A stretch of 64,000 bases of DNA from Elsinoe ampelina (Eukaryota): positions 764,227 to 828,226 of the forward strand of contig ML992501.1 in NCBI GenBank assembly GCA_010093995.1, read 5' to 3'. Every line of letters starts with the position of its first letter. Position 1 is the stretch's first letter. The notes under the pieces are model-generated. The model did no database searches, was not told the DNA's origin, and worked only from the letters and a program-made list of their open reading frames with translations. Positions 22,321 through 58,072 of this stretch are shown piece after piece. The position numbers and the translations under genes were made by a program.

Positions 22321-22844
22321 ATGGCTTCGATTGATAATTCCACACCGCCTGATGAGGCTCTACCCGATGAGCCCGCTGACATGCCTTCCACAATGGCCGC
22401 ATCCGTCGTGCTCGACCATTTACCACGAGATGCCCACGCCGCCTTGGAGCACGCTGGCGAGCTACCGAACCCAAAGAGTGAATCCATCAAACTTGTCCCG
22501 CACTATTCGCAGACGGATATTGACCATCTTCAGTTACCGTTCGCTTATCGCCACTCCCCGCCACACCAGCTCTGCGGCAACCACGGTTCAAGATCTCAAG
22601 CACCCAGCGGTTCGAGGCTGTCGTCCGCTTCTTACGACGAAAGCTACAACTGAAAGACCACGAGAGTGTCTTTTGCTATGTCAATAGCTGTTTTGCACCT
22701 GGTCTGGACGAAGGGGTGGGCAACCTATGGAGGGTAGGTACTGGGAGCATTGGTAGTGTGTTCATGCTCTGATACGCTATCTAGTGCTTCAAGGTCGGCG
22801 ACGAGCTGGTAGTCAGCTATAGCGTCACTCAGGCTTTTGGATGA
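22321..22844 (+). CDS. ATG12: Ubiquitin-like autophagy protein Atg12, 3 exons
   Basis: Spliced: ..[98 protein letters not shown], ending in the conjugating Gly. Confidence 0.93.
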
Positions 22845-22999: not shown

Positions 23000-24061
23000 T
23001 CATAATTCGCCCTTCTCGCCAACCTGCTGGTCCCTCTCGTCCAAGGCCTTCTCGATAGCTCTCAACTCCTCCTCTCTGATCGGATAAGTGTGCTCCTTCG
23101 CAGGATACGTCCGACTCTTCACCTCATCGATATACTCCTTCGTCGCCCTCGTCATCTCCCCCCAAACATCACCATACTTCTTCACAAACCTCGGCAAAAA
23201 CCTCCCCGGCGGGAAATTCCCACCCATATCAACCTGTACCAACACCTGGCCCGAACACCCCGCTCCCGCCCCAATCCCAATAGTCGGTACCCTCAACCTC
23301 CTCGTCACCATCTCCGCCACCTCCGCCGGCACCGCCTCCAACACCATCCCAAACGCGCCCGCCTCCTGCACAGCCAACGCATCCTCCAACAACTTCACCG
23401 CGCCCGCCACCGTCTTCCCCTGCACCCTGAACCCGCCCAACGCATTCTGCCTCTGCGGCGTCAACCCCACATGACCCAACACACTTATCCCGGCCCCGGT
23501 AATCCTCTGGATCTGCTCCTTCACCTCCACCCCGCCCTCCAGTTTCACCCCCATCATCCCCCCCTCCTTCACCAACCTTATCGCAGACTCCAAAGCCTGC
23601 GCACCAGACACCTCGTAGCTCCCCATCGGCAGGTCCCCGACCGTGAAACAACCCCCCGCGCCACGCGCCACGCTCTTGCAGTGCAGGATCATGTCGTCGA
23701 GGGTGAGCGAGACGGTGTCGTCGAGTCCCATGGCGACCATGGCGAGCGAGTCCCCGACAAGGAGCACCTCGATGCCGGAGGTGGAGGCGACGTAGGCGGA
23801 GGGGAAGTCGTGGGCTGTGAGCACGGTGATGGGCTCGGAGCGGCGGTAGAGGGTGAGCAGGTGGGGGAGGGTGATGGGTTTGAGGCGGGAGGGGGTGGTG
23901 GGGGAGAGGGGGGAGTGGGAGGAGGGGCGGCGCTGGGGGGGAGGGTTGAGGTTGGGTTGGACCAGGGCGGGAGGGAGGAGCGTGGAGGCGGGGAGGGGTG
24001 GGCGGAGAGGAGAGGGGCGGAGGGAGCGGAGAGGGCGGAGGAGGGTCGTGGGGAGGGACAT
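23000..24061 (-). CDS. ECM31: 3-methyl-2-oxobutanoate (ketopantoate) hydroxymethyltransferase, mitochondrial-type presequence
   Basis: LTAHDFPSA, LLVGDSLAMV, GDLPMGSY, VKLEGG, GHVGLTPQ, PTIGIGAG..SGQVLV PanB motifs. Arg/Leu/Pro-rich N-terminus. Confidence 0.96.
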   Translation of the reverse strand: MSLPTTLLRPLRSLRPSPLRPPLPASTLLPPALVQPNLNPPPQRRPSSHSPLSPTTPSRLKPITLPHLLTLYRRSEPITVLTAHDFPSAYVASTSGIEVLLVGDSLAMVAMGLDDTVSLTLDDMILHCKSVARGAGGCFTVGDLPMGSYEVSGAQALESAIRLVKEGGMMGVKLEGGVEVKEQIQRITGAGISVLGHVGLTPQRQNALGGFRVQGKTVAGAVKLLEDALAVQEAGAFGMVLEAVPAEVAEMVTRRLRVPTIGIGAGAGCSGQVLVQVDMGGNFPPGRFLPRFVKKYGDVWGEMTRATKEYIDEVKSRTYPAKEHTYPIREEELRAIEKALDERDQQVGEKGEL

Positions 24062-24253
24062 GTTGGTGGTGGCGGCCTCGTTCGTTGTAGTCTAGTAGCC
24101 GCTGTAGCAGAAGTCTGGTGCGGAATGTGTGGTATATCCCGCTCTTACAACTCAGCTCCTCAAACTCAATCCCAAATATTGTATATGCCCTCTCTTTCCC
24201 CCTTCCCAAATCCCTTCAGAGCAAAAGACTACACTCTCGGACGACCGGATGTC

Positions 24254-24306: not shown

Positions 24307-24419
24307 GTTACGCCCTGGGAGAGCGCGGATAGGTATGGTTTCCCGGGGAAGGATTAGTGAGCCTCGTAAGATTTTCTGACGCGCTGCCCCGGAGCTTGAG
24401 CTTTGGATGGGACTGTGAT

Positions 24420-24560
24420 TGTTGTAACTGGCAAATCGGATCGAGAGACGTGTGTTTCATTCAGTGAGTTACAATAACCGATTATCTACTATGTGTGTGC
24501 TGACTCATTAGTACCAGTTCTTTAGTACCAGAGAAGCTGTACTAGTCCTCTATTACAACA
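24420..24560 (-). repeat. Copia 3' LTR (141 bp)
   Basis: Direct repeat of 38398-38538 with 8 differences, all transitions. Confidence 0.95.
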
Positions 24561-24929
24561 CTCCCCCTCTAGTATAGGTTGTTAAAGCTAAAGAACTGCC
24601 TGTTACATATAAGTAAAGTAATTAGGTTATTACTTTATCTTATTATAATTACTTATAATTATTAGTGTTAGCTAATTATTAGTAAGGGTTTACTATTAGT
24701 CTAGCTTATAGTTGTTAATAACAATAGTAACTATTAACAATAGCTAGGCAGCTATTGTTCTATTGTTCTATATAAATAAACTAGCTTATAAATCTTAACA
24801 AGGGAGATATAAGTATCTAGCTAGCTCCTTTATAGTTTCTCCTTTCTTTATTATACTTTATAGTAGTAGCCTGTCCTTTTATACTCTACTTTTACCCTCT
24901 TACTATACTATATCGATAATACTTACATT

Positions 24930-25957
24930 ATAAGCGCTATAGTATAGCAATAGCTAGGCATTAGTAGTATTACTACTAGTACTAGTGCTCTAGGTAGTCT
25001 ACTAGGTAGTAGAGGTAGTAGTAAGAAGAAGAATTCTTTATTAAGGTTACCTAGTACTTCTAATATTAACTATAACACTGCTATAAGATTAATTACTCGT
25101 CTTAATACTCTTAGTAAGTAGCTATAAAGTATTAATAGCACAAGCTAATATTAATAGCCTAATTAACTTAGACTTTAACTTAGTAGTTAGTAGATATAAT
25201 TTAGAATACTCTTCTTAGGCTTAGGATAATTAGTTATTATAACTATACTAACTTATATCCTATCTAGAGGTCTATAGCAGTCTAGGCCTTTAGTACCTAT
25301 AGTGTATACCTAGTAGTTACTAATTCTATTCTAGTTAAGGATCTAACTAAGTAAGTTAACCTTACTAGATCTACTAACTACTCTACTACTTTAATAGCTT
25401 CTAGTGCTACTAGTAGAGTAGTCTACTATAGTACTAATCGCTATACTAAGTGTTAGAGATCTAACTCTAGTAATAATTAGAGTAAGAGTAGAAGTAGTAA
25501 GTTTAGTAAGTATATTACTTTACCTAGTTAGCTTAATAAGGCCTACACTTACTATACTTATAGTAACTAATATACTAGATGTTCCTTAGCTAATTACACT
25601 TTAACTCTAAGACCTGTTAGCTCTCCTAAGCCTATAAGGACCTCGAGTAGCTTAAGAGTTATTACCTAGCCTATTCTATATAGCCTAATATACCTACTAA
25701 TAGAGCTCCTAAGGTCTACCTCCTTTAGTAGTACTTTACCTTAGAGATTCTTACTAAGGGCCTATATGCTAGAGGCATTATTAGATATAGTTAACACTTT
25801 AATAACTTATACTAACTCTTACTACTTTATTATAGTCCCTATAAACTTTATAGATCCTACTAACCTAACTACTACTAAGGTTTATAACTTAGCTACTATA
25901 GTAATAAACTATATAGTAGAGCTTATAAGGATTATAGCTACTAGCTACCCTAGTTAG
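24930..25957 (+). pseudogene. RIP-mutated, intron-containing accessory gene antisense within the Copia (CxxC..CxxC protein)
   Basis: Lies between the end of pol (~26320) and the 3' LTR. Intron-like GTAAGT..GCTAAT..TAG at 25114-25157, with further CTAA(C/T)..TAG acceptors at 25267, 25578 and 25835. One exon contains tat-agt-gta-tac (CxxC after reverting G>A) and tat-act-aag-tgt. The last exon coincides with the 3' part of ORF 25766-25957. Exact exon joins not fully resolved. Confidence 0.55.
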
Positions 25958-28336
25958 CTTTCTCCTATTTATGCCTTTATACTAGGCCTAGTACTAATAA
26001 GGTATAGTAGGTCTAGATCTAATACTTCTATAAGGTCTACTAGTAGTAATAAGGGGAGAAGTTCTCCTTCTATAAGGAAGTAATTTAAGGTAGAGAATAG
26101 GTAGAAGTTATTAAAGATAATAATAGTATTAAGTAGTAGATATAGCTTAGGTATAAGTAGCTAGTAATAAGGTTATAATAGCTTTTCCTTTTTCTCTTTT
26201 TAGTTATAAAGTAATTTACTTTAACCTTTAGATAAATAAGATAGCTTAATAAGTAGTAGTAGCATAAATAATATACTTAAAATAACAATACATATAAAAT
26301 CTAAATAAGTATATAGTATAGATATACACTAAGTAATTAGCCTTTACTAATTAATTAAGAATCTTATTAGGAGACTTAGGCTTTATAAGTATATTAGCTA
26401 ATTACTAAGTTATATTAATATACTTAAGCTTAATTACTCTAAGTTTATACTACTCTCTATAGTAGTAATTCCTTAAATTAATATACTTAGATCTCTTTAA
26501 ATTAGTATAATCTCTTATAAGTTTAATAGCTAATTTATTATTAATAAAGACTATAGTTAGACTAAGGTAGATATTAGTAAGTAGTCTAAGTTTAATAATA
26601 AGATTTCTTAACTAGTTAATCTCCCTATAGGTCTTAGTAAGGGTAAGGTATTTAGCCTTAGTACTTAATAATACAATAATCTTCTATAGCCTTAACTTCT
26701 AGATAACTAGTGTACTAAGTATATAGATAATAGTACTAGATATAGATCTTATAGTTAATCTATCTCTAGTAAAGTCTAAGTTAGAGTAGGCCTTAATTAT
26801 ATTAACTAATAGTCTACTAGTCTTCTTAAAAGTTAAACCCTTTATAAGAGTCTTATTAATATATCTCTAGATTTGTTTAGCTATAACTATATAGGATATA
26901 GTTAGATTCTAAAGGAATCTAGCTAGGTAGTTAGTAGTATAGCTAATATTAGGCCTTATATTATTAGCTAGATACTATAGTTTACTAATAATTCTATTAA
27001 ATATCTTATAGTATTAAGCATTAACTTAGCTATTAGTTAGTTTATAGAGTTAATTAATAAAATACTTTATAGTTCTTACTTAGTAAAGATTATAACCTTT
27101 AAGCTTTTCCTTTAAGTAGTGTAATTACTTAATCTTAATTATGTCCTTAGTTCTATAAAGTTAAATACTAAGGAATAAGTTTAAGTTTATAACCTTTATT
27201 AGAAACTTAAGGTAGAGGTCTTTAACTAGCTTATTAGTATACTTCTACTTAGTAGCAATAATCCTAAAGTTATTAATATATATAAGAACTATATAGTACT
27301 TATTAATAAAGAGGTAAGTATTACTATAGGACTTAATAAACCTAAGTAATAGAAGTGCTTTAACTATAGAATTATACTAGAGGGCTATAGCTTACTTAAG
27401 CCTATATAGGCCCTTTATAAGAATAATAAGCTTATTCTACTTATTAGGAATTAGTATACCTTCTAGATAGGAGATGTAGTTTTTAATATTAATATCTAGT
27501 CTAAGGAATATAGTAATAGTATCTACTATTATAATAACCTAGTTATAGTAGAGAGTATATACTAGAATTACTCTTCTAGTTTTAGCTTTTAGTATTAGTA
27601 TAAAGGTTCTAACAAAGTTAATACCTTACCTTTAGGTAAAGCCTCTTATAGTCTAGCGAGCCTTATATCTTTTAACTTTACTATTAGTAAGTCTCTTAGT
27701 CTTAAAGACCTATTTGTCTATTATTAGCTTAATACCTCTTAGTGCTTATAATTTCTTAATAATTAGAAAGGTTTTAGAGTTAGTTAGAGCCTTCTACTCT
27801 ACCTCTATTATAGCTTACTAGTAATAACCTTTAGGAGAGAATAGTATATCTCTTACTATTTGTAGGTCTAGCTTAAAATTAACAGCTATAGATCCAATAA
27901 TCTTACTATTATTAAGTTTCTTATAATTAATCTAGCGATATATTCTAAGGGACCTTCTAATAGTTTCTTATAGTAAGAGAGATCTCTTCCTTTTACTAGT
28001 TAGAGGTTATATATTAAATAGTATAATAAGGAAGTTAATATCCTTATTCTATATATATATTAGTAGTTAATTAACATTAACTATAGGATTAAAAGTAAAG
28101 TATAGTTTACTAATAACTTTAGGTAGTAGTATTATAAGGTCTTTACTTTTATAGTTAGTATTATTAGGTTACTTAGTAGGTTACTCCCTCTATTTATAAA
28201 TAGGTTAGAGATCTATTTAGGAGCGCTAATATTAAGGATGCTCCCTCTGTTCTTTAATAGGGGTAGGTAATTGTTTAGGGGTTATAGAGTAGTTAGGGGT
28301 TAGCTATTTAGCCTAAGTAGTTTATAGGTTCTTATA

Positions 28337-28534
28337 TGTAAGAACTAACGTAGTAAGTATACTACGCTAGCTTACCCCGGAGATACTATTCTCTATAGAA
28401 GAATAAAGCACTCCTCGCCTATAGAATAGATAGAGTAGAGATTAGTCTTACGACAATCGAGGGTATACTAGTGTAATACCTATTCTACTCCGGTGTACTT
28501 GTCTTTCTAGCTCTAATATCCTATCTTTGTTATA
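28337..28534 (+). repeat. Gypsy-1 5' LTR (198 bp)
   Basis: Direct repeat of 35432-35629, differing by transitions. Confidence 0.93.
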
Positions 28535-31500
28535 ATTCTAATCTCTCTTATATCCTATTAGATAGAGCTATATAGATAAGATAGTACCCCGTACTTAGCG
28601 CTAGTAAAACGACTAACTACTACTAGAGTAGTACTAGTATAGATAACTCTCTAATAGCTTAGCTATTAGCGAGACATTTACTAAATTAGCTATAACTCTA
28701 GAGATAACTCCTATTAAAGATCGCTAGGCTAGGGAAGGCCTAGCGCTAAGACTACACTACGCTAATATAGCTCCTATAGGAAGTATAGCCGACACAGGAA
28801 ATAATACTATATACAAAGCACTTCTTACTTATATCGCTTAGCTCAAGAATACACTTAATAGTTACTCTCTAGTTATAGCACCAGTACTACGTAGTTGTTT
28901 TAACAACATATAACTCAACAACATCTACCTAATAAACCTACAAATCGTAAGAGAGTATATACTAAACTTATACTACCCCGAGACCTTAGAGTCTACTATT
29001 ATAGTAAGAGTTAAGGAATTTATACACACGTATAATAACGTCTTTAAGATAGCGCCAAACATCTACTATAAAGAAGTTACTTAGTACTATATAGCTACTA
29101 GCTACTTAAAAGGTTAGCTTAGCTACAATTAGGACTTATATACTAAGAGCGCTAGTATTATACCCTTATAGAGCCTAATATAGTTCTAGCTTTAGGACTA
29201 AGCCTAGAGTTCTAAAAACTATAGTAATAGCTACGTAGTAAAGTTCTTTACGTCGTACTAGTATAGAGAATAGTTAATTACTAATTTCTATATGTTCCTT
29301 AATAGTTATAAGTTCTATATTAAGATAGCGCTACTCCTAAATAACGCCTGCTATATATAGCTTATTACCTATACTACGCCGGAGCTATACTTAAAAGCAC
29401 TCTATTAGAGGAACCTACCCCTAATTAAGGTAGAACTCCTAGTACATCTATCCTGTTTAGAGTAGAACCTACTAGGCTACTTCGACCCTATATAGAGGCA
29501 GTATAAGTGTAACACTAAAGAGAAGACTAATACTTTTACTAAAAGGCCTCGCTATAACGAAGACTATAAGGGCTAAAAGGACTAGTAGAGTAGCGCTAAC
29601 GCTACCTCTATAGCCCCTTAACCTAGCGCTACTTACCCTTATAACATCTATAAGAGCCTAGACTATTAGGCGCTAAACTATCTCTAGAAGGACTCTTTAA
29701 AACGGATAGTGTCCTTACGTTTACTAATCCTAAGTAGCTCTAGCATAATATAGAATATATACTAAATTTGCGCTAATATTATAGTTAACCTACCTAAAGG
29801 CCCTATCGAAGAAGTAGCTCTAATAGATAGTAGCGCTAATAGTAACTTTATTAGCTAGTATTTTACTATACGCTATTATATTACTATTAACCCCCTAGTA
29901 GTATACTAAGTACGTAGCTTAGATAAATATAAATTAACTACCTATAGATATACTAAGTTAGCCTTAGCTATTAAGAATAGTAAAGGAATAATATAGGCGT
30001 TACGCTAGTAGTTTAAAAGCGTTAATATAACTAGTTATAATCTTATATTAGGCCTACTATAGCTATTGTCCTATAACTCTAAGATTTAGTAGAGCGCTAG
30101 TACGTAGAGGCATTATACTAGCGCTATATAGGTGTTAATTCTAGATGTACTCTTCTTCTCCTAGGAGCTAAATTAGCCTAACGCTTAGCTCTACTAAGTA
30201 TATATATGCCGGGACGAACTTAGCGCTCTAACTCTACTATACTAGCTTAATAACTACGTAGATGTTTTTAATAAGAGCGTAGTAACAGCGCTACTAGGTA
30301 ACAATTTTACTTACTCTATCGATATTAAAGAGAGAGAATAGCTACTCTAGGGACCTATCTACTCCCTTAGTAAGAAGAAGCTTTAAGTACTTCGAGAGTA
30401 TATAGATAATAGCTTAGTAACGAGTTAACTCTAGCATAGTACTAGCTCTATAGAGTCTTCTATTCTATTCGTTCCTAAGAAGAATAGTTCGCTATATCTA
30501 TATATTAACTATTATAGGCTAAATAATGTTACTATTAAGAACTATTACTTCTTACCTCTAATTACTAAGATACTTAATTACATCGAGGGCATATACTTAT
30601 TTAGTAAGCTAGACCTTATAGATACCTACTATAGAGTACATATCTAGCGTAGTAATAAATAGAAGATAGCGTTCCGCTATTGCTATAGCTACTTCGAATA
30701 TACTATTATACCTTTTAGCCTTACTAATGCCCTAGCTACGTTCTAGGCTTATATATATTAGTACTTAAGTAGCTTAGTAGACTACTACTATATTATGTAC
30801 CTAAATAACATTCTAATCTACGCTAGCGACAAGCAAAAGTATCGCTAGGCTATTAGAAGCGTACTAGACCACCTATATAAGAATAGCCTCTATACAAAAC
30901 TAAAGAAGTATATCTTTAAGGCAATATAGGTAGCATTTCTAAGCTATATCGTTAGTAGCAATAGCGTTACGATAGAGTAGCCCTAGGTGTAAGCTATTAC
31001 TAACTAGCCTACTTCTACTAGCCTAAAGGAGTTATAAACCTTTCTTGAATTTACTAATTTCTACTATTAATTTATTAAGAGCTTCTCCTATATAGCGCTA
31101 CTACTAACTATACTTATACGAGAGTTAGTCTAAGAGAAGTAAGTAGGCCTATTTCTATAGAGTAATAACGTAGCGTAGGCCTTTAATAGGCTTAAAGCTA
31201 CCTTTACGTAAGTGCCTATACTACGCTACTTTTTAGTAAGTAAGCCTCTCTAGCTCGAGACTAACGCTTTAGATTTTATACTCTCTAGAGTAATCTCCTA
31301 GTAAAACAAAGGCGATACCCCTACGTAATACTAGTACTCTATAGCGTTCTAGTCCCGGAAGCTATAAGGTATAGAACTAAACTATACTACCTACGATAAA
31401 GAGCTTCTTACTATTATAGAAGTAGCACGGTACTAGCGCTAGTACCTACTTAGCGCCGCTACCCCGATTAAAGTCCTCTTTAACTATAATAACCTTAGGT

Positions 31501-33901
31501 ATTTCCTAACTACTAAGAAGCTTTTATAGCGCTAGGCCTACTATGCCGAGGTACTAGCGTAGTTCGATATTGTTATCTAGTACTATAGTAGAAAGACTAA
31601 CCTAGCTAATAGCCTATTATATAGGCCTAACTACTATAAGTATAAAGAAGGTACATAGAAAGAGCGCTATATATTAGTTCCTCTCTTAGAGTAAGTATTA
31701 TAAATACGAAGTAAAGGAGTTACACCTATATCTATTATAGACAAGAAACCTAAGGCTAGTAAGGCCTAGGAAGATAGTAATAAAGCTAGTATAGCTTATA
31801 TGTCTTAAACTACTCCCTAACGTAACGCGCTTATACAATTCTAGTATGCCTCTAGAATAGCGCCTATAAGTTTACCTATTACCTTAGGAGTGCTATAGCT
31901 ATACTAAGAAGAGTTAGAGCCTCTAGAGTAAGAAGAGTAGTACCTAGAGAGTACTTATATAAACCTTTCTCTAAGCCTAACTAGTAATATCGAATTAAGA
32001 CAATATATGCCTACTCTAGTATTCTAGAACGTGCCGCTACTTGCCTAGGAAATAATAGAGAGCTAAGAGTATAAAGACGGCGTAATACCTATATAACTCC
32101 GGGACACCTCTAGTAGAAAGCCTACTATAATTTTAGACTAGAGTCGGCAGATTACGCGCCTCTATACTATATAAGTACTAGTAGATAAGACTATATACAC
32201 CTCTTCTACTTCTATGTTACTCTAGGACCTTGTCTATATAGTATAGTAAAGGGACGCTTTTACTTATAGTAAGAAATAGAAACTTCTAAAAGAGAGAACC
32301 TCGACTAGTAATAGTACTACCCCTAAGTAAAGCCTGTCTAGTAATAGCTTACTCCGGAACGGAAATAGAGTATATATTCTAGAAGAAACTACCTTAAGAG
32401 TAGAGCTTATATAGCACAATTATAATAACTCCTTAGAGAGTTACTTTAGCTATATAAAGACCTATCTTAATATAAGAAGGAAGTACTAGTAGCTAGGTAT
32501 ATCTATCGCTACGAAAGTGTATATCGAGCGCTACGATAGCTACTAAAGGTATAAGGTAATGTAGTATAAGCCTTATAGCCTCCTATAACTCTTGCTAATT
32601 CCGCCTATACTCGAGGCCTTATAACACTAGTTACTTAATTTTATTACTAGCTTACCCCTAGTAGAGCTCTAGCCTAGCGTCGTTATAGATGCAATTATTA
32701 TATATATCTATTACTTGTCTAAGTTTAGTATCTATACGCTAATGTTAACTAAGCTTAATACTAGAGACTTTACTAATCTATTTAAAACAGATATTATAAT
32801 ATAGTTCGGAACGCTAAAGACACTAGTCTTAGATAGAGAATCTATCTTTATAAGCAAGTTCTAGAGTGCGCTATACTAGCGCTAGAAGGCATAACATAAG
32901 CTTAGTACTAGTTTCTATCTATAGATAGATAGCTAAACTAAAAGGCAAAACTAGACGCTAGAGTAGTACCTATATTACTTTGTCGACTATTACTAGACGG
33001 ACTAGCTATACTAGGTTAAGTAGGTACAATTTATGTATAATAATACGTATTAAGCGTTACTATACGCTACGCTAGTATAGTTCTTATTTACGTAGGAGAT
33101 ACGCCTACCTAATAACATCGAGGCGCTAGCGCTACCTAGCTACGCGCTAGTATATAACTTATTAGTTAATAACTAAGTATAATCTATTACCGAAACGCGT
33201 ACAGAGCTTACTTAATACCTACGTAAAGCATAGAAAGACTAAGCGCTAGCCTATAATAGAGATTAATAAGTAAAAGTCTTCTATAATAGCAACGAGATTA
33301 TACTTAGCACTAAGAACCTTCGTAGCGCTAGACCTAGCTATAAGCTATTAGCTAAGTATATTAGCCTATTTACAATTATATAACGAATTAGTACGTAGGT
33401 ATATAAGCTACGCTTACTAGACAAAATAAAGCTAATCTATAACGTCTTTAACGTCGCGCTACTAGAGCTATATAAGCGTAGTAAGGGCATATACCTACTA
33501 CTCCTAGAGGTAGAAGGGCAGGAAGAATATATTATTAAATATATTCTTAGTAAGGGCTATACTAGCACCTCGAAGGCGCTATACTACCTAGTAAAGTAGT
33601 AGAGTTACTCTATAGAAGAAAGTATATAGAAGCTAGTAAAAAACCTTATAAACGCTAAGGAATTACTATATAAATACGAGGTAGCTTAGCGTAAGTATAG
33701 CGCTAGCTAAACACTCTAGACACACTTAGGATTAATAAGTTAAAGGCACAAATCTTAAAGTAAAGAGTACCTAGGTATAGCGCTAGGTTAACTCGAGGTA
33801 TTATTAGCTTATATAGTAAAAACGCTAGCGTAGCAAAAACTATAGAATTATACTAAAGCAAAGGGGGTATAGTATAGGCGTAGTGCCCTAGCCTCCCTAC
33901 C

Positions 33902-34772
33902 TTAACTATCTATATTATCTACCTTAGTCTTATCCTTATTATTCTCCTTAACACTATTAATATACCTAGTTAGCGCCCTTATAGCGTTGTTAATTACCTA
34001 CGTAGTAGCGGCTTACTTGTTCTTAGTAACTACCTATAAGAAAGTTAGTATAGCTTAGGCGTTATAGAGGCGCACTTCTAGACTTATATAACTAGCTAAA
34101 GCCTTAAGTATAAAGCTAGTATTACTAATTATACCTAGGCGTAGCGCCTTTACTAGCTACTTAGTATCGCCTTTAGAGGTAGAGAGCGTAGCGATAGTAC
34201 TATTATAGCGTAAAGAAGTTATACTATTACTATTACTTTTATTAACTACTTTACTCTTGCCCTTAGCGTTAGACTTACTCTATGTATATTTAGCGCTAGC
34301 CTTCTCGTATATATAGTTAGTATAGATAGTAATTCGGCGCTTTAGAAGAATAATATTCTTCTTAGAAGTAGTAGCATCGTTATAGATTAGTATATATATA
34401 GTAAAGTATTTGTCCTAGAGCTTCTTAGTAGTAACTTAATCCTTAGAGTCGAGCTTAGTAGGCTACTAAGGTTAGTATAAAGTAGGTGTAGTATAGGTAT
34501 AGAGTATACCTAGTAGTAGTGTTTATTACTATAACTATAACAATTATAGTAGGTAGCCTTAGCCTTAGTAATCTAGTAGAGAGAATTCTTAATAGAGAGT
34601 ATACTATCTTCGAGCTAGAGGTGCTTATCGATAGTAATAGCGTAGTGTAAGTATAGTATAGAATACTAGTCCTAGTTAGTAAAATCGCTCTTATAGGGGC
34701 TATAAAAGGTTAGCGCTAGCGTAGCGTAAGTACTATATATAATACTTACTCTTTAGGAACTTTAGGAGCTAT
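33902..34772 (-). pseudogene. RIP-mutated 4-exon antisense accessory gene in Gypsy-1 (~239 aa, Cys-cluster protein with acidic tail)
   Basis: Exons 34772-34750, 34699-34510, 34462-34088 and 34033-33902 total 720 nt with compatible phases (2,0,0). The three introns have GTAAGT / GTATAC / ATAAGT(<GTAAGT) donors, CTAAC branch points and TAG acceptors. All internal stops are TAG/TAA, revertible to CAG/TGG/CAA. Confidence 0.75.
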
Positions 34773-34912
34773 AGTTATTAAAGTACGTAAGTGTATAGAA
34801 GGTAAGCTAGTATAGAGCTAAGATAATAAAAAGGAAAAAAAAATTACTACGTAGGTACTATACTAGGTTAGTAAATAAATAACTAAATAGATAAGCCCGA
34901 TAGCTAAATCTA

Positions 34913-34954
34913 TAGTAGCGTAGGCTTAGTATATATACTAAGCCTACGCTACTA
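34913..34954. repeat. Perfect 42-bp palindrome
   Basis: tagtagcgtaggcttagtatatatactaagcctacgctacta equals its own reverse complement. Confidence 0.9.
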
Positions 34955-35431
34955 GCCTAAGGGCTAGTAAGGCCTAGTCTATACTATATAGTACCTAAAA
35001 TAGATTACTAGTATAGTATTAGACTTATATAAGTATAGAGCTAGCGTTAAGTAGGATACTTACGCGAAGAAAGTATTATAAAGGAGAAAAGAAGAAGAGA
35101 AGGAAAAGAGAAAAATATATATCTAGCTCTAAGCTAAGCCTAATCCGGAGAATAATAAGTAGTAGTATATAATAATAGGTAGATCCTTATATATAAAGAT
35201 AATAATATAAGAGCGCTATATTTTATATATAAAGAATTATACTATTATTACTATATCTAGTATACGAAGAATAGTATAGACTACTATAGGCGCGCTATAC
35301 GCGCGAAGAGTATACTATACCTAAGAGGCGCTAGCGAGACACTCTTTTCTAGTTTTCTCCTATACTAGGTTTTTTAAGTTTTATTAAGGCTTATAGGCGC
35401 GAGGGCGTGCCCCTTAAAGAGGAGAAATAAT

Positions 35432-35629
35432 TATAAGAACCGACGTAGTAAGTATACTATACTAGCTTACCCTAGAGATACTATTCTCTATAGAAGAATA
35501 AAGTACTTCTTACCTATAGAATAGATAGAGTAGAGATTAGTCTTACGACAATCGAGAGTATACTAGTATAACACCTGTTCTACTCTAGTATACTTGTCTT
35601 TCTAGCTCTAATATTCTACCTTTGTTATA
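35432..35629 (+). repeat. Gypsy-1 3' LTR (198 bp)
   Basis: Direct repeat of 28337-28534, followed by TSD TTATA. Confidence 0.93.
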
Positions 35630-38397
35630 TTATAACTAAAGAGTAGTTAATTGCCTTAGTAATAATTACTACTAAATGTCTACTTCCCCTAAAGCTATAA
35701 AGCCTTAGGTTGTTATACCTATAGGATATATAGTTATTAGATAGGTAGTATTACTTAATCTTTATAGACTATACCTTTATTAAAGGTAATATAAGGTAAT
35801 ATTAGAATCTTTCTCTTCTAGGCTTATTAAGTATAGTACTAATAGAGCATCTAGATAAGGTAGTTAGTTTTAGAGTTAGGCTATATTCTAATATGCTATC
35901 TAAGTAATGCTCTAGCTTAGAACTTATATAATTTAGAAATATATTAGTTATAGACATAGGCTCTATAGCTAAAGCGTCTAATATAAGTTAATAAGACTAG
36001 TCTATTATTATTAAGAAGATCTTTCTTTAGTTCTTATATAGGGATCTTCTTAGTTTTCGTATAAGTAATTCTATTACTAATATAGATTATAAACTCTACT
36101 AATAAGTACTAGAGTTTAAGGGGTGCTCTATAGTTAATAAAGATATATCTTATTCTAAGAATAATAGCTTTATTAGTAGCCTTAGACTCTCTATTTTAAT
36201 ATTAAGTATTAGGTGTAGAGATATTCTATCTCTAACTATTAAGTTAAATAGCTATTACTAGCTTATAGTTCTTAAATTTACTACCTCTATTAGAGATAAA
36301 GATAAATAATAGCTTATTATAGGCTATATAGTTCTTAGTGTAAATAGCCTTAATAGCTGCTAAGGTATTACTCTTTAGGAGAAGAATAGTAATAAACTTA
36401 TACTTACTTTTACTATATATTATAAAGAGAAGATACTTATAGCCTTTACTTAACTATAGCTTAATAGGACTAATAAGGTCTAGATAAAGCTTATCTAGTA
36501 AGTATTTTAGTAAATCCCTTAGCTCTCTTAATACTACTCTTTATACTTTTAATATAGTATATAGTTTATAGTAGCTAAGATCTAATATTTAAAGTTCTTC
36601 TAATCTAATAGCTTAACTTTTAGTAAGGGAGAGAATAGTGTTACTAATATAGCCTAACCTCTAGTACTATCTTTCTAATATTAGCTTTTAAGTAGTTATA
36701 ATAGCTAGATTTACTCTTATAGCCTATAGCTTCTATAGTTTTAGCCTTATAGGTAATTTCTTATAGTTCTAAGGCTTATAGACTTTAAAGTTCTTAAGCT
36801 ATTTAACTCTTTTAAAGTGTTTAATAAGGCTAACTTCCTTTCTATCCTTTATTAAGGATTTACTAACTATAAAGATACTAAGTTCCTCTTTATTCTAAAG
36901 ATTAAATATAAGAGTATTTAGTAATAATAGTAAGTATATATAATTATAAAGCTTAATAATTAACTTCTTACCTTTACTATTAGTTAGAGTAAGCCTAACT
37001 ATACTAACCTCTATATTAAGTAGTTTCTTTATACTAATAGCTTATTTAAATTTAAGAATACCTTTATATTCTTTAATTATTAAGAACTATAATCTGTCTT
37101 TAATAAAGTGCCTTAATATACTAGAGTTATAGATTACTCTATTTTAACTATATATTAATAATAATAATAATAATATAGATATAGCTACCTTAGTATAAAT
37201 TAATCTAATTATATTAATATTACTATTAGAGTACTTATCTAATTCTCCTACCTTAGTAGGTTCTCTAGATTCTTTAATAGTAGCTTAACTTTTAACTTTC
37301 TTAGTCCTTAACTTACTACCTCTACCTTTAGCTTTAGTGCCTTTATTATTTAACCTACCTTTGTTATTCCTCTTATTTTAATTCTTTAGTACTTTCTTAG
37401 AGTGCTACTTAAAATAATCTATATTAGAGTAGATATAATAAGTATACTAAGTATATTAATCCTTAATATAACTAGCTACTCTATAGATAGAGTTTAGATT
37501 AGTTCTTCTATTATATAGAGGCTTTTATATTCTAAAAGAGCCTATTATCTCTTTAAGACTCTTCTTATAGTTAAGGCTAGATCTCTAGCTCCTTAACTAT
37601 TTAGTAGTCTCTATTTCTATAATAAACATAGTCTTAATATAATATAGAGGGAGCTTAAACTTATCTAGTTTAGTACTAATAGTGCTTACTCTTTACTCTA
37701 TAGTAATAGTATATTAATAATAGTACTTTATAAAATCTTTATAGTACCTTTAGGTGTTATAACTTGTTATAACTACCTTATTAAGGTTATAGATAGCTAT
37801 ATATAGCTTATATAAAACAACAGGTTTAAATATAGCTTTAATAGTGTCTAGAAGTTCCTTTAAAGTCTTCTAAGTTATACTATAGTAAGGTCTAATAGAT
37901 TTATAAATCCTTATTATAATAATACTATAAGTAATTCTATTATTCTTATACTAGGTCTTATTTCTAACTTTATAGATTGTCTTAGTGCCTTTACTAGTAT
38001 TAGGGGCTAGTTCCTTAGGCTTTATAACTACTAGTATCTAGTTAATACTATAGATTATATATCTAAGTATATCCTTTTTAAGGAGGGCTACCTTAAGGGT
38101 TAATCTCTAAGTATTATAGTTGCTTTCTCTCTTAAGAATCTAAGTCTTAAGCATTTTTGCTAATCTAGACATAATAATAGTAATTAGCTAAAGGCCTATT
38201 AATTTAATTAATGTAATTAGCTTATTTAAGCTATTTAAGCTATTTAATTAAAGGGTTAATATAGGCTACTACAAGTGTTTGTCTTAATATAGCTAGTCTA
38301 GAATTTAGTGTAGGCAGCTTGTTAATCCTTTTTAATAATGACATACTTAATTTACTATAGCTTTAAGTGCTTTTAAAGAAGCGCCGGGCTTATAACC

Positions 38398-38538
38398 TGT
38401 TATAACTAGCAAATTGGATCGAGAGACGTGTGTTTCATTCAGTAAGTTACAATAACCGATTATCTACTGTGTGTGTGCTGACTCATCAGTACCAGTTCTT
38501 CAGTACCAGAGAAGCTGTACCAGTCCTCTATTACAACA
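38398..38538 (-). repeat. Copia 5' LTR (141 bp)
   Basis: Direct repeat of 24420-24560, followed by TSD GTGAT. Confidence 0.95.
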
Positions 38539-38755
38539 GTGATTCCCGCGGGCCGAAAAAAAGGGTCTGCGAAATGGAGGGGCCGAGGTCGACCGGTGGT
38601 CGAGATGCGAGGGTGCGCAGATGGGTCGGGCGGGTAGCGGCGGCTTTGGACATGGCATGTGAAGATGGGAGGAATGAGTGACTGCATAATCAAAGTATGT
38701 ACTGCTACTGCTGCCTTACCACGTATCCAATCTCGTCGCCATCCAAGCATCCTCG

Positions 38756-41700
38756 CTACCTGAGTGGACTCTTCCCCAGTCCGCCTGCCAGACCGACAAC
38801 CCTCTTCCCGGGCGTCCCTGGCGCGCTTGCCACCACCTGCGCCGGCGTCCCACTCCGCTCTTCCTCCCCCCTCTTCTGTTCTGCCTTCCATTGTGACGGG
38901 GCTTTGAATCCAACATCTCTCCCTCCGATCCAAATGTCATCGATAGTGGGCTCGACAATGCCCCTTTCATCAAGCTCCTTCCATTTCTCCCACAGTTTCA
39001 AGGCGGTCCTGGCATCTTCGACTGAGTCGTGGCCGTGTTCGCCTTCCTGAACCTCTTCGCGCAACAGGTACCATGCGAGAAAGCGCAGACTAAGCTTTCG
39101 TTGAGAGCGTACGCCGAGGGAGAAGAGCTCGATGGTGTCAATGACTTGCGCCTTCGGAACGTGAATGTTGATGGTGCGAAAGTCTTTGGCCAGACCGTGA
39201 CCAACGAAGACAACACCGAGATTCAAGAGCAGCCAAAGCTTTTTGTAGGCTGCTTTGAGCGAGACAAGATTGTGCTTGCTCACGCTGCGATCGAGGTCTC
39301 CAGGGGAGATGCCGGAGTAGGCTGTTAGATAGTCGACAACTGGTTCGTTGATGGCTATGTAGTCGTCAATGAATGGTAAACCGGTATCGCTGCCGGCACC
39401 TCGAAGCACAGAGACACGAGCAAGTCCGAGACGTGGCGGACGGATCGTTTCGCGTGTGCCGTCTGCCTTGAGGTCGATCTCCGCTTTTGAGAGTGCCACA
39501 AACTCAGCGTCGATCGCCATGGGCTGCATCGGCAACGGTGTCTCGACAGCGGGAGCCAATGGCCTCAGCTGATCCGTCGGAGGACTCTTGTGTGGACCTC
39601 GAGGCAAGTGATACAGCAATGTCGGGTCCAACGACGCCTTCCAGCTATCATCAATAACCTTGCTGGCGGACTTGACCTGGTATGCAAGTACAGACGGAAG
39701 CTTCCACGTCGCATCGAAGTGCAGCGCATCAGATGGCGAAATTTGTCGGACAAGGAAATCGTTGAAAAGATGCCAGGAATCGATGTCCTTAGGATTCCGA
39801 CAAGAAGGGGACACGTTGATACAGGAAACCAAGTGACTAGACTGGTTCTCCCCAGCGTGAATGTCGGCTACAAATCCAATGAGTTCATAGACCGTGATAT
39901 TATACACTCCTCTCTGAATGTGCAATCGAAGATCTTGTCCTTCGTAGATGTAGACCTGTCGATCACCATTGATGATGACGCCAATCTCTTGTGGCAGCCA
40001 GTTCGGAGAGGCCCAAAGCTGTCGTTGGTCGAGAGTATGAATGGCTGCATTGATCATCATGACCTTTGGTAATGCCTGAATCGACTTCTTGGTATTGAGC
40101 TGCTGGTATCGTTTGCATCGATCGCACCAGCCGCGACTTGATTCCTGCCGTTCGATACTGGCTTTGAGGATGTGAGAGAAAGTGTGCCTAAGCTGACGAG
40201 GATGATGCTTCGGCGACTTTGGTGGGTACACAAGATCATGGACGATCGTGTCACCAGGCTTGAGCATCTCGTTGCCGCAATGACCGCATCTGATGGCCAT
40301 GACAGCTGCCGTAGTAAGGGCATGCTCCAGTGCAAGAGGATAACCAGGGATTCTCTTATAGCTTTCCGAGAAGGCTCGTAGAAAGTACCTGTTCGCTGCC
40401 TGTATCATGACTGTCAGCGGATTGTTGTGGGCGTGATCTTCAAGCAGGCCAAGCGTAGCTGTTTCCGGCAGGCTGCTGTACACTTTTAAAAAGTTGCTGG
40501 CTTGACAGTTCATACCTCCGGCCTTCTCAAGCATGTCGGTCAAGAAGCCCATCTCGCACAGCAAGCAGGGTTCATATAGACATGATGTAGCCGTGTGGTG
40601 GAGAACAAAATTTCGCATGACTGGAATGAATCGTAGAAGCTGCAGAAGAGGGTTTGCGTAAGAATTGCTGATGTGTGTTTCCAAGCCGGAGTACTTGGTT
40701 TTGTTGAAGTATCTGGAAGTGTCGTCAGCGATACCAGTGTGGTATGATTGAATGAAACATACTCAAAATCAAAGTCGTCGACACCAAATTTACTATACTT
40801 GATCTCGACATTCTTGTAGATGACCGGTACATCACGCCTAGAGTTGCTCTCGAGATTCATGCCGGCAAGGAATTCCAGAGCGTCGCTTATTCGCCTTTCG
40901 CCATTATGTCGCACACCTTCTTCTTTGGCATCTCTTGCTTTCTCGCTCAAGAATTTGGGAGCCGCTAATGTGTCTTGCGCTCTCTGTACGGCACGAGTGT
41001 CCTCAACTTGGTATCGTCGAGTCTTCTGTGGCCATGGCGCATAGCCACCCATATCGGCCCGCTTCAGGGAAGCCACAATCTTGGGGTCAATCTTTGCAGG
41101 CGGTGCGCCAACTTCGTGAACAAGATGTGATGGCCAGGCGGAGAAGAGAGTGTCGCGGTAGTAAGGCATGCCAACCAAGTTCAGAGGGCTGTCATGGTCA
41201 GTACAGATGTCAGGATAGAGCACAGGGACTCACATCTCGGGCGACCAGTCGATCGGAGGTACAGGCTGGGCAGAATCCGCAAAGGCCGTTGGGTTGCTGT
41301 ATTCTGTGAATTGGACCTTGTTCGGTGAACCCCAGAGGTGTATGGCACATTGTGCATCTGCTATTGCAATAGCCTCTCCGGAAGGTGCAAGATCGAGAGT
41401 CAGTAGATGTGTATCATAGAGATTTGCATGCTTGACTTTTGCATTGTCGGGATTCATGATGTCGATGGCGTACATGAGTCCAGTCTGAGAAGCGACGATA
41501 CAGGTCGTTGACATTCGGGGGTGCATTCGTACAAAAGCTGCGCCAGGCGGGAATGGTACAGGTGGTAGAGGTGTCATGTTTTTGAGGTCAAAGACATTGG
41601 CGAGATGATCTAGCATGAAGCCGTGCTGCTGGCGCGGCGACCAACCACAAGTGACCAAGATCTCGGACCGTACGTCCATGTCATTGATCCATCCAGAGTG

Positions 41701-54003: not shown

Positions 54004-56341
54004 TTAGCCGGGCGCAGGTCCAAAGCTGTTGTCCCAGGAGAAGTCCTGCTGTGGGAAATTGAACAGCGTTGGATCTTGAGCCTCGCCCGTGTTGAGCAGG
54101 GTATCCCAAGCGCTCTGCAAACTGTCAGCAAGGATCAAGATGGCCAGCAGCGATAGCTCTCACCCAGTCTATAGTTGCAGTCACATCGTTCATCGGGGTG
54201 TCAAAAATATCGTCAAAGGAGACATTGTCAAATCCTGCATGTGCTCCATCACCACCAGATTGTATCGAGGAGGTTTGGAAAGCAGGTCCGACAGTCGTGG
54301 TACTCATTTGTGTAGGCACTTGATGTGCATCACGTGGAGAGTCGCTGCCCATCATGGCAGGTACAGTCCGTTTGAGCTTGCTTCCACTCCGACGACTGCC
54401 AGGGTGTTCTGTCTGAGATCTGGATTGCTCAAGTAGGTGCGATAATGCTTTTGCGGCTCGCCGAGCTTTCATTGGTGCTCGTTCCCAATTGCTTCAGATT
54501 TCTGTCGATTTCTCCAGGGCATCCATCATAGATTTTCGCTCTTCCTGAATGCTCGATTCTGGTCCATCCGACTCTGCCCTGTGCTTGCTATGAGAGAGCT
54601 CAACCCCAACGACAATACCCCCCAAGATGAAGCAGTCCATACAATCCCGTATTTGCTGGTAATGGATGGATTCGAGTTGTCCGCCCTCCCAGATAGCCTC
54701 ACCAAGGACGAGATGGATGTTGACGATCTCAAGTGCGGCTCCGAGACATAGCTTTCTTTCAAGATGATCTGTCGTGCCAAGATGGCGTCGGAAAAGGACG
54801 CAAATGTTTTCAGACGGAACAATTCCACCTTGATTCGCTCCATGATCAATTGTGTATCACCGAATGATTGATCAAGTGACTTCATGCGAAATATGCTTGG
54901 CGTATCCTCATGGATTCTTGTGAGTTGAGCATTTAGCTTATGAGCTATGGCAGGGTCCGGTCGGTCAGAAGAGTTGGATAGTGATACAGCCTCTGCGAAT
55001 ATAAGTATCATGTGGCCCATGATAATGCTGGATGCGATGAAGGTCTTCTCCGACGCCGGCCGCGGTGGTGGGAGATGCTCAGATTGTGTAGAAAAGTCCG
55101 AGTCTTCCAGGTTGAGTGGCATGGCCGTGTTTGCTTGTAGCGCCCGGATGACACTAACGAGTCCGATCTGATAGCTGAAGATGATATCCAAGTGGCAGAT
55201 GGCTAACCAGATCCTTCGCCGAATCTCTGCCACGAAAGGTGTTACATCAGAGCGGCCACCAGCATCGCGAAACATTCCCATCCTCGTTGCGAGACGAGTG
55301 ACAAGTCCAAGCTGTAACCATAACTTGAGCTGATCGGCATCACTCTTAGTCTGGCCGTACCTGATCAACAATATGAGAGCTTCTAGGAGGTAAAATTTTG
55401 GCCGGGCATAGTCAGCAAGGATGACAGCATGCGTAGCCATCTCGTGGAAGGTCTCTCCAGGGTGGGGCTCCGATGACTCGGGAGGTGATTTACGTGAATA
55501 CTGATCGCCTAGCGCGAGGATGTCGAAGAGGACGGCGAGCCAAACTGGAGAGGCTGCTGTGGGATTCTCCCAGAAGGCAGTGTACTACGACCATTAGTCT
55601 CGTTAGTGGGTACTGCGCAACTGCCCACTTGCCTGCTGCTGGAAAGTCGGAACATGCACAATATCTCGCAAACGATAAGCGCGGTTCAGAGTAGATGTTC
55701 AATGAACTTACACCTGTACGTGTCACAGGACATGAAGAATGCTGCAATCAGCTTGTCACAAGTTTCGCTGGAACATAGGCGAGCAAATCATCCACGGTGT
55801 ATGCACTGGGCCCAGGGAAAAACAGATCAGGTGTCCCTCGGCTTCCACTAGAGGTGGTAGGCTGGGTCAAAACTCCAGGGAGGGTGGAGGAAACCACATC
55901 GGGGTCGTCGTCAAGATGAGTCTTGATCTCGGCAATTTCGTTGACAAGGCTCTCCCAGTGAGCTGGACCGACGAAAGCAGTCTCACTGTCTGTAATCTTC
56001 AGGCGGCCCTGCGAACCCGTGGGAGGTTGAGAAGAAGTATCGCTAGACTGGTCTGCAGTGGACGGAGTTGCAGCTTCGGCAGCCTTGTCAACTCTGGTCG
56101 TGATGCCTCCGAGATCTTTTACCATCTGCTCAAGACTATCCAGTCGCCTTCGCATGGCCTGCGATTGCGACTTGTAGGCCAAGGATTCTTGCATTGAGCT
56201 CGAGTAGACGCATTGAGGCTCGCGAGACCTTCGTACACATTCCCGACACGGTAGCGCCCGGTCGCATCGTAATTTGCCAGTCCTGCATGGTTTGCAGCTT
56301 TTCTGCGGACGCTGGCGGCGTTTAATTTCATTTTGACTCAT
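54004..56341 (-). pseudogene. Zn(II)2Cys6 fungal transcription factor, apparently disrupted
   Basis: SCKPCRTGKLRCDRALPCRECVRRSREPQC zinc cluster and Fungal_trans region (RMGMFRD..EIRRRIWLAICHLD). Needs frame changes near 55770 and 54805 and read-through of a TGA at 54494-54496. Confidence 0.8.
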
Positions 56342-56367: not shown

Positions 56368-58072
56368 TGTTGACTTGTGTGGGGGAGGAAAAAAGGATTA
56401 ATTACTGCCTAAACCACCAAAATGAGGTAGATTATAACTACATAAATACTTAACCTGGTATACTAAAAGATAGCTAAATCAAAAGAACTTCTTAATAGTA
56501 GCAGATTAAGACAATAATTATCTAATTTAATTATAGATTAGTAAAATAGTAAGATAGTGTTTAGTTTAACCTTGGGATAAACTAAATCAGGGTCTTCTTA
56601 GCGCTCTAGCTTATACCTCGGTTAATATACCCCTTTACTAAGTAGCTATAACTCTATAATAGCTAGTTAGTAGACTACTAACTCGAGGGATAGCTATTAT
56701 AAGAAGGCCTTATACCTCCTAGGTAGTAATAATTTAGTAAATCCATTAGCTAAGATATCTACTAATAGTGTCTATATAACTAAGATAGGACTAGATAGAT
56801 CTCTAGCTTAATTAATCTCTTGTTTTAGCTAATAATAATAAATATTAATATAGTAAAGATATATATTTAGCTTCTTAATTAAAGTAGTAATAAGACTAAT
56901 AGTTTACTAATTATTATACTAAATACTAACATGTTTAAGGGGATAGATAAAGGCTATTAGCCTCCTCTACTACATAGCTTACTTAGTAGTCTCTATAAGA
57001 GTAAGTAGCTTAGCCTCTATAGTTAATATTATAACTATTAATTACTTTATAGCCTTCTAGTTAATTAATCCTTAAAACATCTTAAAGAGATAGCCTTAAA
57101 AGCTCTTCCTTATTAGGTAGCTACTAAAGCTAGTATCTAATAAAGCTTAAAAGATTAGTAGTAGTATTAAGCTATTAAAGGTAAGAGCTAAATTCTTAGT
57201 TTTATAGAAATATTAGATTACTCTATTTACTATCCTCTAGTAAGTTAGTAATAGATTTATTAGATGCTCTAACAATCTAGAAGTAGTAAAGGCTATATTA
57301 GGCCTTATAATAACTACTACAAAGTTAATAGATTCAACCTTTTACTAATATAAGTAGATCTCCTATAGTAATACTTAGCCTTTATAAGGTTTAAGTATCT
57401 TAATTAGTAGTAGTATTAACACTAGCCTTATTAGTTCTATAATAAACTTACTATATATCTATTATATATACTAGGCTTAGCTAAGCTAGAGTCTCTTTAT
57501 TAGTCTATCCCTTATAACTTAGATAGCTAGAAACTAGCTTAGATCTTTAAGCACCTTTATCTTATATTTAGTATAGAGAGCTATAATAATAGTATTAGCT
57601 TTCTCCTTATACTTCTTAAGATATATAATAGTAATATTATCTATAAAGAAGAAGATTATTACTTTAGGTATTATCTAGAGGTATAGAGCCTTAGAGGCTT
57701 AAGTAAATCTAATACTCTTTAGAGTAGTAGTAAATTTAGTATACTAGAGAGCTAGGGCTTACTTTAGGCTATATAGTGCCTTATTAAGCAATAAAATTGC
57801 CTCTAATAGAGTAATACTAGGATAGTCCTTTATAAGATTCTCTACTACTAGCTTAAATCTAGTAGGGATAGTATAGTAGGTAGTCTTATTAATAGAACTA
57901 TTAATATAAGTATTAATAACATCTATCTAAATAGCCTTTATATCTTTATAAGTAAGTAATACTATAAGCATTCTAAAGATCTTAGCTACTAGAGTTACTA
58001 TATAAGTCTTAGATTCTATTAATTAAAGATTACTTCTTATATAGACTTTTACTTTATACTTTATAACCTTTC
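56368..58072 (-). mobile_element. Second Ty1/Copia element (3' part: RT, RNase H, probable 3' LTR), RIP-inactivated
   Basis: Minus-strand degenerate K.K..VRGDLQ (~58030), IIFFFVDD-like (~57645) and ADGFTK (~56745). Reversed purine tract cccctt at ~56630. Left boundary uncertain (tgttgac 56368 .. gttaata 56627 would be the LTR). Confidence 0.8.

Follow-up and report, generated by a model that had tools for sequence, protein, structure and literature searches.

In a 64,000-nucleotide (nt) stretch of contig ML992501.1 of the fungus Elsinoe ampelina (assembly GCA_010093995.1; the whole stretch is referred to as the window), a Ty1/Copia retrotransposon is split by a Ty3/Gypsy chromovirus, and in each of the two elements the region between the end of pol and the 3' long terminal repeat (LTR) carries the footprint of a former gene. 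Specifically, each of these regions appears to hold ~0.85-1.0 kb of former coding sequence, located next to pol and antisense to its host element, a conclusion that is supported by base periodicity, stop codon frequencies and a codon model STATISTICALLY. Both elements are saturated with repeat-induced point mutation (RIP) and have no intact gene, and the locus is dead DNA without function in the present genome. Taken together, we consider it fairly probable that the Gypsy element hit the Copia element, that RIP destroyed both, and that each had once carried an accessory gene of the aORF-3R type (antisense additional open reading frames between pol and the 3' LTR), converging on pol and with its leader set against the polypurine tract.

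Antisense coding footprints downstream of pol

An earlier reading of this sequence (the original prediction) had proposed that both elements possess a 3' extension of ~1.7 kb, and a comparison of pol ends with purine tracts confirmed this: in the Gypsy, pol runs to ~33720 and the purine tract begins at 35416, and Copia pol ends at ~26300 (an estimate based on the end of the RVT_2 profile and on collinearity with a second Copia copy in the window, Copia-2), with its purine tract at 24561-24570. Copia-2 does lack such an extension, as had been claimed, its RVT_2 match being located at 57983-57444 (minus strand) and the AT-rich block ending near 56400, so that a 1.7-kb gap cannot fit there.

Read literally, the antisense frames of the two gaps contain no open gene (50-99 stops per ~610 codons, with 3-7 Cys). 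We searched the gaps for traces of coding using three measures, i.e., three-base periodicity, the stop fraction of each frame and a codon model trained on RIPped pol genes. The periodicity chi2 amounted to 2.5-7.5 in LTR and untranslated region (UTR) windows and 7.6-43.3 in windows of known pol; in the Gypsy gap it reached 15-18, and in the Copia gap 38.6-50.7, the maximum of the entire block (p 3e-9). As for stop codons, four known RIPped coding stretches contained 5.1-8.5% in the true frame versus 7.4-23.5% in other frames. In the Copia gap, the plus frame at 25229-26080 contained 3.5% (10/284), versus 9.5-22.6% in the remaining five frames, and in the Gypsy gap one minus frame contained 4.8% (9/186) at 33880-34440 and another 4.6% (7/152) at 34441-34900. 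When windows of equal length were slid across the known regions, none of the 1350 non-coding-frame windows and none of the 270 true-frame ones matched the openness of the Copia remnant, whereas ~1% (at most 1.1%) of the non-coding-frame windows matched that of each Gypsy piece.

The strand of these footprints was deduced from the same statistics. In all four known regions, stops are scarcer in the coding frame than in the codon-aligned opposite one, a rule which places the coding strand of the gaps antisense to the host element. The codon model, which identified the correct strand in 66 of 70 held-out windows and the correct frame in 36 of 70, called the minus strand in 7/7 windows across 33850-34899 and, for 25312-25911, the plus strand. 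Thus, as in the aORF-3R class, the remnants (25229-26080 and 33880-34900) lie between the pol end and the polypurine tract or 3' LTR, and on the opposite strand, the latter on statistical grounds (stop fractions, the aligned-frame comparison and the codon model). In contrast to the remnants, the distal parts of the gaps are flat in all frames (8.2-10.5% stops at 34901-35415 and 9-17.6% at 24562-25228); in our reading, they represent a non-coding leader of ~0.5-0.65 kb that separates each antisense remnant from the purine tract.

We weighed these footprints against the alternative that the gaps are simply long non-coding 3' regions, in which composition or chance in RIPped DNA produced the frame signals. 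Stops separate frames weakly in such DNA (5.1-8.5% in known coding frames and 7.4-8.7% in some other frames), searches of the gaps yielded neither homologue nor domain, and in the relatives described below the distance from pol to the 3' LTR varies between 57 nt and ~1.9 kb (some of the apparent repeats there are probably assembly overlaps at contig ends), all of which would fit a gap without a gene. However, the Copia gap has the strongest periodicity of the block whereas true LTR and UTR windows have none, no non-coding-frame window is as open as the Copia remnant, and the flatness of the distal parts indicates that the signal is local and not a general property of RIPped DNA. We therefore regard purely non-coding gaps as quite unlikely.

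The antisense gene that had been predicted downstream of pol is thus retained as a coding footprint, found at the same place in both elements, and not as an open reading frame (ORF). Its supposed multi-intron structure was not retained: the Copia remnant runs in one frame and needs no intron, and the Gypsy remnant changes frame only near 34440, which may reflect either an intron or an indel. More generally, these findings show that coding footprints outlast saturating RIP, and that periodicity combined with frame-specific stop fractions can expose accessory genes in dead copies of elements.

Antisense ORFs in intact relatives of the Gypsy element

As a sensitivity control, we searched with the RIPped Gypsy pol, reading its stops as X, and retrieved 56 proteins (best E value 3.9e-137), nearly all of the best ones with a chromodomain. 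A profile built from nine pol homologues then yielded 80 metagenome loci, ~28-35% identical to the pol of the window; no Ty1/Copia relative was found among them at E 1e-6, the loci having been gathered with a Gypsy pol profile. At least 1 kb of sequence follows pol in 40 of the 80 loci. Antisense ORFs downstream of pol are present in intact Gypsy relatives, several of them with a six-Cys motif.

One locus of similar layout is L010, which has a true LTR pair and, between pol and the 3' LTR, a degraded antisense frame of ~355 codons with 5 stops, whose intact homologues (355 and 346 amino acids, aa) are 79-81% identical to it. With a gap of 1748 nt, an LTR of 181 nt, a total length of 7070 nt and an antisense frame downstream of pol, this element resembles the Gypsy of the window. 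One of the homologues, P0057 (matching L010:13640-14707, minus strand), is assigned by one source to a Deltaproteobacteria metagenome bin, where it is called a hypothetical protein; it is the antisense ORF of a fungal-type chromovirus, and the bin probably contains a stray eukaryotic contig. In the ESM Atlas, the clusters nearest to P0057 are unnamed Ascomycota proteins (0.86-0.89), which serve as leads only. Four other loci (L015, L034, L038 and L062) have in common an antisense family with 42-89% identity, charged, with a coiled coil and in at least two pieces, and the ORF of L006 belongs to a family of ~100 aa (P0060-P0062), two members of which exhibit Cys-to-Tyr changes.

The six-Cys core of the relatives' antisense proteins reads C-x2-C, a third Cys, and C-x2-C-x5/6-C-x-x-V, in some cases with a coiled coil and an acidic tail after it. 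A strict scan for this core (645,874 nt, six frames) returned six hits, two of them of low complexity and four antisense (L001, L006, L012 and L026); three of these four are found no more than 2.5 kb downstream of pol, the L001 hit having no settled place within its element. The number of Cys and their order (C-x2-C ... C ... C-x2-C-x5/6-C) are reminiscent of the Gal4-type cluster PF00172. The canonical Zn(2)-Cys(6) spacing is C-x2-C-x6-C-x5..12-C-x2-C-x6..8-C. Unlike it, the relatives' proteins have a first loop of 8-16 residues instead of 6 and do not match PF00172 at E up to 10; nor did they match any Pfam family, PF00172 (Zn_clus) included, at E up to 1-10. Searched by tblastn, the Cys ORFs of the relatives had no match below E 0.05 in the window or the remaining loci. 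The L026 ORF is weakly linked to the coiled-coil family (E 0.003), and a sequence search of the PDB with it returned designed coiled coils only (E 0.016 or worse). Its AlphaFold2 model, made from a 9-row alignment, had a mean predicted local distance difference test score (pLDDT) of 60.9, with the Cys region below 50 and only the helix at 111-155 confident. The antisense six-Cys ORFs of intact fungal chromoviruses have homologues in databases and no family name.

Similarity between the remnants and to the relatives

To compare sequences so heavily mutated, we used a RIP-tolerant alignment, in which each codon is scored as its possible pre-RIP forms and no sequence is rebuilt. The original prediction had envisaged a module shared by the Copia and Gypsy elements, i.e., one homologous, spliced Cys-protein module with the motif CxxC..C..CxxC. 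The layout of the two elements is indeed identical, and the six-Cys motif is real in antisense ORFs of the chromovirus relatives. Nevertheless, the two remnants are mutually dissimilar (z -1.2 to 0.3, versus 72.7 and 17.9 for control pairs of RIPped pol), and at the DNA level the two gaps have nothing in common beyond short AT-rich stretches of 20-54 nt (E no better than 8e-4). Judging from these alignments, the remnants appear to be analogous in position, with homology not demonstrated. The connection with RIP pressure that had been suggested for the module likewise found no support.

The Cys motif did not strengthen the case for common descent. As the gap sequences stand, CxxC..C..CxxC is absent from both, with a literal CxxC found once in the Gypsy gap (33722) and never in the Copia gap; the claim of a Cys motif in both antisense genes depends on guessing Tyr back to Cys and was abandoned. 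The open Copia frame does contain one relaxed [C/Y] six-Cys match that includes two real Cys (25442-25582, the sole such match in that frame), one of only four with two or more real Cys among 65 relaxed matches in 42,870 codons. At that background, one relaxed match is expected in a 284-codon frame about one third of the time, and a narrower relaxed [C/Y] scan gave 0-3 starts per frame without enrichment of the antisense frames. The match is thus compatible with the motif and proves nothing. Considering in addition that the Copia remnant needs no intron, we find a single homologous module very unlikely.

A further explanation is that the remnants are unrelated sequence that landed reversed in the 3' region, be it a fragment of a mobile element or a captured host gene. 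The region is, after all, a nest of insertions, and the remnants are unrelated both to each other and to the antisense proteins of the relatives. Against such an origin, we detected no further LTR pair or repeat family within either gap, and no transposase, reverse transcriptase (RT) or other Pfam domain there, though the RIPped pol was readily detected by the same reading; moreover, the Copia, the Gypsy and L010 agree in where the segment lies, in its orientation and in its size. This makes a reversed insert unlikely in our view.

Several observations weigh against our preferred explanation, that each element once carried an aORF-3R-type gene. No ORF is open: the block contains no stop-to-stop frame of 100 codons, and the longest fully internal frame has 84. 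The boundaries of the remnants were set after the frame scan, which renders the empirical fractions optimistic, and the minus frame at 33880-34440 (4.8% stops) is barely more open than two of the plus frames (5.4% and 6.5%). Having been trained on pol, the codon model may in its strand calls partly follow base skew, and a single copy of each element was studied. Homology searches were likewise unfavourable. Neither gap contains a Pfam family at E up to 1 (six frames, stops as X) or matches the six-Cys core profile (E up to 10); RIP-tolerant alignment of the gaps to the relatives' antisense proteins (L006/P0061, L010/P0057, L012, L026 and L001) gave z -2.0 to 2.7, with a pol control at 23.9; and among 613 word-sharing candidates for the Copia remnant protein (X at stops), none reached E 0.01 or better. 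In this respect, the window gaps differ from the metagenomic six-Cys ORFs (L006/P0061 of ~100 aa, L010/P0057 of 355 aa, L012, L026 and L001), to which they have no detectable similarity.

Hairpins

A hairpin had been described upstream of the gene in both elements, and this proved correct for the Gypsy element only. There, a perfect 42-nt palindrome (34913-34954) heads the antisense remnant, exactly where the coding footprint stops. Its length was not reached in any of 100 dinucleotide shuffles, the longest perfect palindromes of which measured 14-30 nt, and chance does not explain it. The palindrome contains neither CpA nor TpG, and symmetric RIP would therefore leave its perfection intact. 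The Copia repeat (24897-24953), with 25-nt arms of 80% complementarity and a 7-nt loop, is at background level, given that inverted repeats of 70-89% occur in every RIPped control stretch. Among the relatives, a hairpin upstream of the antisense ORF was found at 1 of 7 loci (L012; short, 15 nt, 87%), so that the hairpin does not belong to the common layout. In L038 (7010-7054), a perfect inverted repeat of 20 nt, with a loop of 5 nt, was also noted between the two pieces of its antisense ORF.

Relation to known accessory genes and possible function

The original prediction had considered the arrangement an undescribed system, a claim that we do not uphold, since the class is described, a fungal gene (brtn) included (PMC7264820, PMC8365987). 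aORF-3R is a named class whose function is unknown, comprising additional ORFs on the antisense strand between pol and the 3' LTR in Grande, RIRE2, Retand, PvRetro13 and, among fungi, the Botrytis element Boty (PMC7264820). In the same source, gene23 of Grande codes for a nuclear protein and is transcribed from a promoter of its own, situated upstream of the ORF, and both a regulatory role and a role of double-stranded RNA have been proposed for the class (PMC7264820). The Boty gene brtn was reported in 2011 as an additional antisense gene of a fungal Gypsy element (Virology 417:248, cited in PMC8365987, PMC7264820 and PMC4227169), and fungal Gypsy elements have been marked as having an "additional ORF with unknown function" (PMC2864245). 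In the literature searched, which left out subscription papers and supplements, no six-Cys or zinc-cluster antisense protein of fungal LTR elements was found described.

The plant aORF-3R genes (Grande gene23, RIRE2, Retand ORF4 and PvRetro13 ORF2) resemble the arrangement in the window in having an antisense ORF between pol and the 3' LTR and an unusually long 3' internal region. Unlike the footprints of the window, which are RIP-degraded, fungal and in one case hosted by a Copia element, the plant genes are intact, conserved among copies and all of Ty3/Gypsy type; the likeness is one of layout. Boty, a Gypsy element of a fungus, is similar by description in that it, too, has an added antisense gene. 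A genuine Copia remnant would extend the aORF-3R layout beyond the Gypsy-type examples, at least those named in PMC7264820.

By analogy with the intact relatives and the plant elements, the antisense gene may have been transcribed from its own promoter within the 0.5-0.65 kb leader. Its product would be a small zinc-binding or nucleic-acid-binding regulator, conceivably acting on the element's own transcription or replication, and the antisense RNA itself could anneal to the genomic RNA at its 3' end. A more far-reaching proposal, which we regard as doubtful, is that both LTR superfamilies in fungi carry fast-evolving antisense six-Cys regulators, Zn2Cys6-like and DNA-binding, with an internal promoter by the polypurine tract and no Pfam model, and that the remnants of the window are RIP-degraded members of this group, one of them in a Copia element. 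Should elements encode zinc-cluster regulators of this kind, they would provide a handle on the self-control of expression by fungal retrotransposons.

Structure of the nested elements and extent of RIP

The Copia element (Ty1/Copia, minus strand) is the outer one, spanning 24420-38538, and the Gypsy element (Ty3/Gypsy chromovirus, plus strand) the inner one, spanning 28337-35629. A pair of direct repeats of 141 nt, 94% identical (24420-24560 and 38398-38538), bounds the former, and a pair of 196 nt, 90% identical (28339-28534 and 35434-35629), the latter. At the Copia junctions we found LTR ends reading TGTTG...CAACA, a duplicated target GTGAT and a minus-strand purine tract (AGAGGGGGAG) touching the LTR; at those of the Gypsy, a duplicated target TTATA and a purine tract (AAAGAGGAGAAATAAT) ahead of the 3' LTR. 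The LTR pair, the 5-bp target duplication and the polypurine tract ahead of the 3' LTR accord with membership of the inner element in Ty3/Gypsy. The plus-strand Gypsy thus interrupts a minus-strand Copia, and the LTRs, target duplications and purine tracts of this nest are all in evidence (Table 1). The offset of the Copia coding frame across the Gypsy equals exactly the shift predicted by the insertion length.

Domains were searched with Pfam against all six frames, reading stops as X and admitting E up to 1. On the plus strand at ~30474-33474, this search found RVT_1, two RNase H models and an integrase SH3 domain (SH3_Tf2-1) in the order RT-RNase H-integrase. RVT_1 scored E 7.3e-6 and 26.3 bits (the curated cut-off of 29.6 not being reached), RT_RNaseH_2 1.1e-14 and SH3_Tf2-1 6.3e-9. 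The Pfam Chromo model was not reported for the inner element; PF00385 is present in 9 of the 10 best homologues, and the alignments extend to query residue ~1225-1234 of 1239. The Copia RT is of RVT_2 type (PF07727; 27736-27077, minus strand; E 1.8e-16, 60.9 bits versus a cut-off of 31.6). Between 35635 and 38397, the search (E up to 1) returned no integrase or gag family, and only a minus frame poor in stops is visible.

Table 1. Positions of the features of the nested elements and their 3' gaps in the window
Feature	Position	Strand	Basis or remarks
Copia target duplication GTGAT	left 24415-24419, right 38539-38543		junction reading
Copia 3' LTR (TGTTG...CAACA), 141 nt, weakly RIPped	24420-24560	-	94% like 5' LTR
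Copia polypurine tract AGAGGGGGAG (minus-strand reading)	24561-24570	-	adjoins LTR; junction reading
Frameless leader of Copia gap	24571-25228		stops 9-17.6% in all six frames; contains imperfect inverted repeat 24897-24953
Copia-antisense ORF remnant	25229-26080	+	284 codons, 10 stops, one frame, peak periodicity of block
Copia RT-RNase H remnant	26300-28331	-	RVT_2 27736-27077; pol end ~26300 estimated
Gypsy 5' LTR	28337-28534	+	TTATA target duplication before it at 28332-28336
Gypsy gag-pol remnant	28535-33720	+	RVT_1 ~30474-30948, RNase H ~31176-31566, integrase SH3 ~33300-33474, chromodomain-like tail to ~33700
Gypsy-antisense coding remnant	33880-34900	-	frame one 33880-34440 (9/186 stops), frame two 34441-34900 (7/152)
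Perfect 42-nt palindrome	34913-34954		border of antisense remnant and frameless leader
Frameless leader of Gypsy gap	34901-35415		stops 8.2-10.5% in all frames, no periodicity; purine-rich run ~35060-35110
Gypsy polypurine tract AAAGAGGAGAAATAAT	35416-35431	+	junction reading
Gypsy 3' LTR	35432-35629	+	TTATA target duplication after it at 35630-35634
Copia 5' half, gag-protease-integrase by position	35635-38397	-	no Pfam match; frame fits single ORF spanning the Gypsy insertion
Copia 5' LTR	38398-38538	-	direct repeat and junctions

The damage to the block is evident from its base composition: G+C amounts to 23-44% within 24.4-38.5 kb versus 50-64% on both sides. The usual cut-offs for RIP are 0.89 for TpA/ApT and 1.03 for (CpA+TpG)/(ApC+GpT). 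Within the elements these indices were 1.8-2.3 and 0.10-0.24, respectively, and in the flanks 0.47-0.63 and 1.23-1.37. The Copia LTRs (24420-24560 and 38398-38538) are barely RIPped, with indices of 1.4-1.6 and 0.81-0.88.

Other observations in and around the nest

In RNA-like contigs of the same organism, the Copia LTR is fused to different flanking sequence, with loose ends at positions 24420, 24560 and 38538/9, which points to further copies or solo LTRs elsewhere that are transcribed through. In the RNA-like contigs of four runs from two studies, none fell between ~24.6 and 37.8 kb, a lack of cover that says nothing on expression. In the Gypsy leader, a purine-rich run of ~50 nt (35060-35110) lies ~320 nt upstream of the 3' LTR, separate from the polypurine tract.

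A second nest occupies 56400-64000, where the Copia-2 remnant (~40% like the first Copia, minus strand) is neighboured by a second, plus-strand chromovirus. The latter has gag at ~58.9 kb, RVT_1 at 61504-61890 and an integrase SH3 domain up to 63720; its pol ends at the window edge, leaving the 3' gap out of view.

The nest studied here is flanked by two minus-strand genes, one at 23000-24091, which we take to be ketopantoate hydroxymethyltransferase-like, and one at 38756-40762, presumably a PAN2-like nuclease. Introns of flanking genes at 22478-22533 and 40713-40762 are removed in contigs from four runs (GT..AG for the plus strand, CT..AC for the minus strand). Finally, an ordinary host gene encoding a Zn(2)-Cys(6) cluster at 56189-56299 (minus strand; PF00172, E 1.5e-4, 22.2 bits, cut-off 21) adjoins the second AT-rich block.

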